The notes under the pieces are model-generated. The model had not been told where the DNA came from. It worked only from the letters and a program-made list of their open reading frames with translations, and did not search any database. The position numbers were made by a program, and so were the translations under genes. From a virus (lineage: Duplodnaviria; Heunggongvirae; Uroviricota; Caudoviricetes), in IMG/VR virus record IMGVR_UViG_2630968342_000015: DNA of 14,640 nt, one strand, 5' to 3'. Of the stretch, positions 5,251 to 5,479 are shown piece by piece. How positions within the stretch are numbered: position 1 is the first letter of the stretch; each line of letters begins with the position of its first letter.

Positions 5251-5479
5251 ACTGTTCACCACTGTTCACCCTGTCATAAATATCTTTTGTATCAGTATGT
5301 TATAGGGTGAACAGTTATTTATGAACTGTTCACCAAACTATTCACTGTTCACCTTTTTGATTGTTTATTGAGCTTCAAGGGTGAACAGTGGTGAATAGTT
5401 GGTGAATAGTTTTTGTGAAACTGTTCACCCCTTAATATTATGAATTAAAAGATAAAATATCAAAAGGTGAACAGGTGAA
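5251..5479. repeat. Iteron-type replication origin: about 12 copies of ACTGTTCACC / GGTGAACAGT in both orientations plus an AT-rich stretch
   Basis: Forward copies at 5251, 5261, 5325, 5337 (degenerate), 5344, 5420. Reverse copies at 5306, 5380, 5390, 5401, 5466, 5474 (partial). AT-rich segment at 5431-5465. Lies immediately downstream of the primase stop (5238). Confidence 0.75.

Follow-up and report, generated by a model that had tools for sequence, protein, structure and literature searches.

Between the helicase gene of an Escherichia coli chromosomal island and its next open reading frame lies a gap of 287 bp (stop codon TAA at 5236-5238 to ATG at 5526), which is occupied by an array of short repeats in both orientations. 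The question raised by this locus is what the array does for the element. For this analysis, we used the whole stretch of 14,640 nucleotides that carries the island, hereafter called the window. The initial annotation had predicted an iteron origin served by the adjacent product of 3421-5238, and the present results bear this out through the homology of the origin-binding domain (OBD), an octamer identical to that of P4, the covariation of the OBD wing with the iterons, and the homology to the rep-ori of EcCICFT073. With a probability of roughly 0.85, we consider the array to be the replication origin of a capsid-forming PICI of the EcCIEDL933 type.

The predicted gene organization of the window is that of a capsid-forming PICI (cf-PICI) of the type described for EcCIEDL933 (10.1101/2022.09.08.507074). 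[quoted passage not shown]

1-1218: integrase (Pfam)
1593-1781: AlpA (Pfam)
3125-3424: DUF4222 gene, overlapping the start of the initiator gene
3421..5238, plus strand: initiator gene, 605 aa, with an alternative GTG start at 3406 (the RefSeq start); D5_N, SF3 helicase, and C-terminal origin-binding domain
5526-5771: small ORF, 81 aa, phrog_1231, function unknown
5768..6178, plus strand: SSB-family gene (Pfam SSB, TIGR00621), just downstream of the array
following the SSB gene: PerC-family regulator; the small ORF, SSB, and PerC together span 5526-6461

Additionally, the element encodes an HK97-type capsid, a prohead protease, a portal, head-tail proteins, HNH, TerS, and TerL, as identified with Pfam. 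From the PICI context, int, alpA, and rep are present, and tail and lysis genes are absent. The copy in E. coli O157:H7 was 99.7% identical, was inserted in tqsA, and had the same gene order in the RefSeq annotation, and the array with its flanks was found in 594 of 5,426 complete E. coli genomes. The SSB-family protein is probably part of the replication module. The DUF4222 gene sits at the position of P4 cnr (ORF106), a regulator of alpha DNA binding; tblastn gave no similarity between DUF4222 and Cnr, and the tblastn search of the window gave no homologues of the P4 accessory proteins Cnr, Sid, Psu, and Delta. For an ORF of 247 aa at 1839-2582, neither Pfam nor PHROG gave a match; the same stretch of the O157:H7 copy is annotated as a truncated hypothetical pseudogene, with a YlcI/YnfO-family gene overlapping on the opposite strand. 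The text of the cf-PICI papers searched contained no mention of an origin, iterons, or a primase.

To describe the array, we counted the decamer ACTGTTCACC with at most one mismatch, using dinucleotide-preserving shuffles of the whole window (n=200) as the null model. The window contained 12 occurrences, 10 of them in 5251-5475 with five on each strand, against a shuffle mean of 0.73 per window and a maximum of 5, so that 0/200 shuffles reached 12. The ten good sites thus span 225 bp, compared with an expectation of 0.73 for the entire window. Including two degenerate copies, twelve copies of A(C/G)TNTTCACC occupy 5251-5483, and the core octamer TGTTCACC is present in eight exact copies inside the array.

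5251..5260, plus strand: iteron 1, ACTGTTCACC
5261..5270, plus strand: iteron 2, ACTGTTCACC
5306..5315, minus strand: iteron 3, ACTGTTCACC
5325..5334, plus strand: iteron 4, ACTGTTCACC
5337..5346, plus strand: iteron 5, degenerate, ACTATTCACT; overlaps iteron 6
5344..5353, plus strand: iteron 6, ACTGTTCACC
5380..5389, minus strand: iteron 7, ACTGTTCACC
5390..5399, minus strand: iteron 8, ACTATTCACC, one mismatch
5401..5410, minus strand: iteron 9, ACTATTCACC, one mismatch
5420..5429, plus strand: iteron 10, ACTGTTCACC
5466..5475, minus strand: iteron 11, CCTGTTCACC, one mismatch
5474..5483, minus strand: iteron 12, degenerate, ACCCTTCACC; a good iteron in other genera

These positions agree with the about 12 copies that the initial annotation had noticed in 5251-5479 (ten with at most one mismatch and two degenerate), as well as with its tandem pair at 5251/5261 and its triplet at 5380/5390/5401. 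Its location of the array also stood, but the end had to be moved four bases, from 5479 to 5483. Where the window has the degenerate iterons 5 and 12, nine other genera have good ones. Iterons 5 and 6 overlap (ACTATTCACTGTTCACC, 5337-5353) because of a 1-bp deletion relative to the other genera, in which the two sites abut (TATTCACCTGTTCACC). Only 12 bp separate the initiator stop codon (5236-5238) from the first iteron. The array lies between the two exact copies of a 9-bp direct repeat, GCAAAAATT, at 5228-5236 and 5490-5498, of which the left one overlaps the stop codon of the initiator gene, and a conserved A/T-rich stretch after the last iteron is also found in other genera, in the P4 ori, and in the P4 crr. 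Rfam returned no known RNA anywhere in the window, and a literature search with the octamer gave unrelated primer matches only.

The twelve iterons are arranged in two inverted modules of six, each with a single iteron facing a tandem pair across an AT-rich spacer of about 35 bp. The spacing patterns below are written in the order of the window.

5251..5353, no strand: left six-iteron module, a reverse-oriented P4 ori core, > 10 > 43 < 21 > 12 > 7 >
5271..5305, no strand: left AT-rich spacer between convergent iterons, a candidate unwinding element
5354..5379, no strand: central spacer, 26 bp between the inverted modules, variable in length and sequence among genera
5380..5483, no strand: right six-iteron module, a forward P4 ori core, < 10 < 11 < 21 > 44 < 8 <
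5430..5465, no strand: right AT-rich spacer, the strongest candidate unwinding element

In a global alignment, the left module and the reverse complement of the right one were 77% identical (z=23 vs shuffles). The AT-rich block that had been proposed at 5431-5465 holds the least stable 30-mer of the 14.6-kb window (5431-5460), with a nearest-neighbour dG of -27.2 kcal/mol; the 30-mers of the window have a mean of -41.4 kcal/mol (sd 3.4), which places this segment more than 4 sd from the mean. A mirror-image block at 5271-5305, missed by the initial annotation, contains the 30-mer ranked third among the least stable (5276-5305). Elsewhere in the window, further very AT-rich segments of low stability lie at 1330-1461 (the int-alpA intergenic region) and at 14458-14521 (near the right window end), and these may be regulatory or attachment-site DNA.

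A counterpart of this layout was found in P4. The features annotated as 'ori type 1 repeat' in the ori and crr of P4 (NC_001609) are exact TGTTCACC octamers, and both the octamer and the decamer consensus ACTGTTCACC of the P4 ori are identical to those of the window. The P4 ori has the spacing < 10 < 11 < 22 > 43 < 10 <, the same six-iteron layout as the window modules. By global alignment against shuffles, the right module was 71% identical to the P4 ori (z=26) and the left module, as its reverse complement, 78% identical (z=23). The array thus amounts to the P4 ori core present twice, in opposite orientations.

The two replicons are nevertheless assembled differently. P4 has a single ori module about 4.7 kb from alpha and a separate crr, whereas the window has two ori-like modules adjacent to the initiator gene. 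The P4 crr, like the window array, lies immediately downstream of the alpha-type gene, and both consist of two iteron modules, each with a '> 43 < 9-10 <' unit around AT-rich DNA. However, the P4 crr is made of two direct 120-bp repeats with five iterons each, 60 bp apart, whereas the window modules are inverted, have six iterons, and are 26 bp apart. The window array therefore combines a crr-like position with an ori-like sequence and geometry.

P4 alpha, which binds type 1 iterons according to the GenBank annotation and the title of the PDB entry 1KA8, shares with the window initiator both the SF3 helicase and a C-terminal winged-helix OBD of the 1KA8 type. This P4 structure is reportedly the work of Yeo et al., from 2002. 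In the window, the OBD and the segment of it discussed below are encoded as follows.

4879..5235, plus strand: origin-binding winged-helix domain, aa 487-605, 1KA8 homologue
5128..5160, plus strand: codons of the beta-hairpin wing, MKRKTKHGLRS; proposed specificity determinant, with a mosaic breakpoint at the 5' edge

The phmmer search matched initiator residues 502-598 to the P4 origin-binding domain (PDB 1KA8) with E=1e-24. Since the relatives recovered with the full-length protein were 77-98% identical and gave an alignment too shallow for modelling, the AF2 model of the C-terminal 119 residues was built on an alignment of 89 sequences; it reached a pLDDT of 82 and a pTM of 0.74, and a single-sequence prediction with a pLDDT of 35 was discarded. 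Foldseek placed the model on 1ka8_A (E=7e-12, TM 0.91, rmsd 1.0 Å), with no other chain below E=0.1. In this model, the wing corresponds to the DSSP strands 85-88 and 91-94 that follow the helix 65-77.

The remainder of the initiator was examined with domain and protein searches. Pfam matched D5_N, DUF5906, and Pox_D5, and NCBIfam matched TIGR01613 'primase_Cterm' in the helicase part; it is from this last match that the protein has its database name, 'DNA primase'. Residues 150-600 were 50.7% identical to aa 320-771 of P4 alpha, and the BLASTP alignment started at initiator residue 113, equivalent to alpha residue 290. In the search for a primase domain, aa 1 to about 160 gave no Pfam, NCBIfam, or PDB match, and the sole match of the N-terminus (3421-3780, aa 1 to about 110) was PHROG 2850, of unknown function. 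The initiator thus lacks the N-terminal primase domain of P4 alpha (bacterial-type, DnaG-like, about 290 aa) and, judged by its domain matches, is not demonstrably the primase-helicase of the initial annotation. For its first 110 residues or so, no counterpart with a known function was found.

A P4-like TOPRIM primase N-terminus was found in relatives with the same helicase and OBD, namely in E. coli 2022CK-00450 (789 aa, WP_409998167.1), in Enterobacter L017 (790 aa), and in Xenorhabdus (804-846 aa). The N-termini differ among initiators that are alike in helicase and OBD; the N-terminal domain has therefore been swapped.

Among PICIs, the prototype of Gram-negative bacteria, EcCICFT073, offers the functional comparison. 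Its rep-ori, cloned in a temperature-sensitive plasmid, supports maintenance, and at the restrictive temperature far fewer colonies grew once rep or ori had been deleted (Fillol-Salom et al. 2018, ISME J, PMC6092414). The EcCICFT073 Pri-Rep is 48% identical to the window initiator over residues 1-592 vs 1-584 (BLASTP), short N-terminus included. As in the window, its array is directly 3' of rep, with iteron sets flanking AT-rich DNA, and has the geometry of two inverted modules (> 9 > 48 < 20 > 11 > 9 > 33 < 11 < 68 < 9 <). The neighbours also match, with DUF4222 upstream and the small ORF, SSB, and PerC downstream, and the shared order of the latter three suggests a conserved post-origin operon. 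The two elements differ in the iteron word (TNTCTACC in EcCICFT073 vs TGTTCACC in the window) and in the wing (ITRKVKGVTQT vs MKRKTKHGLRS), and the window element, unlike EcCICFT073, has its own capsid, portal, and terminase genes.

The ori of SaPIs and Gram-positive PICIs, as Ubeda et al. 2007 are summarized in PMC6092414, lies directly 3' of rep, and its iterons are placed on either side of an AT-rich region that melts. The iterons themselves differ from those of the window, and the likeness, taken from the literature, is architectural. The same article treats PICI origins and P4 as only distantly related. The general rule on which the initial annotation had relied, that PICIs and P4-type satellites place an iteron origin directly downstream of rep, therefore applies to PICIs but not to P4, which has the crr there and the ori about 4.7 kb away.

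We scanned one genome per species with a helicase-OBD profile, which resulted in 80 loci, 64-87% identical, across the Enterobacterales. In nearly all of them, the array follows right after the stop codon and has the same two-module geometry. The replicon is carried by capsid-forming PICIs, by elements without capsid genes, and by Xenorhabdus/Photorhabdus islands, in which the alpha homologue retains a P4-like N-terminal primase domain. Across 10 genera using TGTTCACC, all 12 iteron positions are kept in place, with the consensus A(G/C)T(G/A/C)TTCACC. In these ten genera, iteron columns were 94.5% identical (73% invariant), compared with 74.1% (22% invariant) for the spacers (Mann-Whitney p=7e-16). 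One of the relatives, LR881103.1 (L002, 'Escherichia phage vB_KppS-Ant', 16.5 kb), was submitted as a phage that came from an induced prophage. Its genes are those of a cf-PICI, its initiator is 74% identical and is followed by a two-module origin with the word TGTTCACC, and terL is followed by a gene of 2.3 kb that bears the annotation tape measure.

In 79 loci, the geometry is constant, whereas the iteron word switches among TGTTCACC, TGTCTACC, TCTCCACC, TGTCCGCC, TGTCCACC, and TNTCTACC, and within loci of the other word classes every copy in the array carries the changed word. The word class partitions perfectly with an OBD segment of 11 to 16 residues just after 'EYGKEY', which is the wing; elsewhere the OBD hardly differs between classes, and this holds for the helix in the recognition position as well. 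Word class is independent of backbone divergence. Upstream of the wing, loci of class B (TGTCTACC) share 90-91% identity with the window protein and are its closest relatives, whereas the users of the class A word (TGTTCACC) range from 100% down to 50% identity (P4) to the window protein. Two E. coli variants (H59 and H60), with a GPDKGR-type wing and TGTCTACC iterons, retain 78-84% DNA identity to the window up to about 5127 and then lose all similarity, starting exactly with the first wing codon and continuing through the iterons. Since the wing codons lie less than 100 bp from the iterons, wing and iterons are transferable by one recombination event, and the pattern therefore amounts to some 5-6 independent class switches rather than 79 observations. 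That all twelve sites change in concert with the wing would nevertheless be expected of a cognate protein-DNA pair.

These results also bear on other functions that might be assigned to the array. It could be a crr-like cis-acting replication enhancer or a copy-control (handcuffing) region, with initiation elsewhere, as it sits where P4 has the crr, right after the alpha homologue, and as the P4 crr units also hold a '> 43 < 9 <' sub-module. However, neither the element nor the rest of the window has a second iteron cluster, and about 75 related loci, searched over ±6 kb, have none either, P4 being the sole exception with its second cluster 4.77 kb upstream of the alpha stop codon. The window modules are also closer to the P4 ori (71-78%, z>22) than to the crr units, to which either module was 63-70% identical (z=8-12), and the least stable DNA of the window is within the array. 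Furthermore, the equivalent EcCICFT073 fragment together with rep sufficed for plasmid maintenance (PMC6092414). A purely crr-like enhancer is unlikely because no other cluster is there to serve as the origin and because the modules are ori-like.

We regard it as very unlikely that the array is mainly an operator/promoter of the downstream orf81-ssb-perC operon, bound by the initiator, AlpA, or PerC. The array does lie directly upstream of 5526-5771 and the following genes, and a sigma-70-like match on the plus strand (TTGTGA, 17 nt, TATTAT, 5413-5441) overlaps iteron 10 and the AT-rich spacer. Nonetheless, promoter-like matches numbered 3, against 1.5 ± 1.3 in shuffles, and are not above expectation; the putative -35/-10 is not conserved across genera, whereas the iterons are; and the repeat word covaries with the initiator wing and with no other regulator. 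A secondary autoregulatory role of the array is possible. The terminator scan gave nothing above shuffles; its one candidate consists of the iteron 9/10 palindrome and a poor T-run. Almost no weight is given to a packaging (cos/pac) site of the element's own terminase or to chance or selfish repeats without function. An element with its own TerS, TerL, and HNH must have a packaging site somewhere, yet terS and HNH are about 6 kb away, and elements with no capsid or terminase genes nearby (EcCICFT073 and many other loci) have this array after their helicase gene as well. Such elements, together with the covariation of the word with the OBD wing, exclude a packaging site, and the positional conservation over 10 genera and the shuffle statistics exclude chance.

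If the array is the origin, as we favour, replication could proceed as follows. A helper phage would switch on the satellite operon via AlpA, and the initiator would be made and would bind the twelve iterons via its C-terminal winged-helix OBD. Of the iteron bases, the constant ones (T.T...CC) would probably be read by the invariant recognition helix and the variable central ones by the beta-hairpin wing. With spacings of 10-11, 21, and 43-44 bp, the sites would be separated by roughly whole helical turns. Initiators clustered on the mirror-image modules would bring their SF3 helicase domains together and melt the AT-rich spacers, and helicase rings loaded in opposite directions would give bidirectional replication, by analogy with the head-to-head helicase loading of other SF3 initiators. 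The element's own SSB may then coat the unwound DNA. Primers would come from an activity other than a recognizable primase domain of the initiator, as the protein has none.

A broader proposal is advanced tentatively, as we hold it to be rather less probable than its negation. The wing and the three central iteron bases (T-N-T-YYR-C-C) may form an exchangeable cassette that defines the replication cross-talk groups of enterobacterial satellites, with the cf-PICI sharing the group of P4; the split ori/crr of P4 may be derived, having been pulled apart from a compact palindromic two-module origin such as that of the window and about 75 related loci. If so, the origin of the cf-PICI could be fired or titrated by P4 alpha, and that of P4 by the initiator of the cf-PICI, which would amount to cooperation or interference between two satellite families at the level of replication. 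If the specificity code holds, replacing the wing MKRKTKHGLRS with KRAKCTKGPDKGRTIT would shift the preference of the initiator to TGTCTACC.

The origin described here is an ordinary representative of a known class (PICI rep-ori, P4 alpha family), and the findings on the array do not overturn the current understanding of these replicons. What is added is incremental: the exact identity to the P4 iterons and ori, the compact inverted two-module design as opposed to the split ori/crr, and the wing-iteron classes. With these results, the probable origin is located for a widespread satellite, O157:H7 included, and its exact coordinates are usable for minimal replicons or replication-dead cf-PICI mutants. 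PICI origins are also tied directly to P4 alpha and its type 1 iterons, biochemically the best-studied satellite replicon. Finally, the suggested recognition code, in which the wing hairpin is matched to the central iteron bases, would explain how several satellites share a cell without replication cross-talk.
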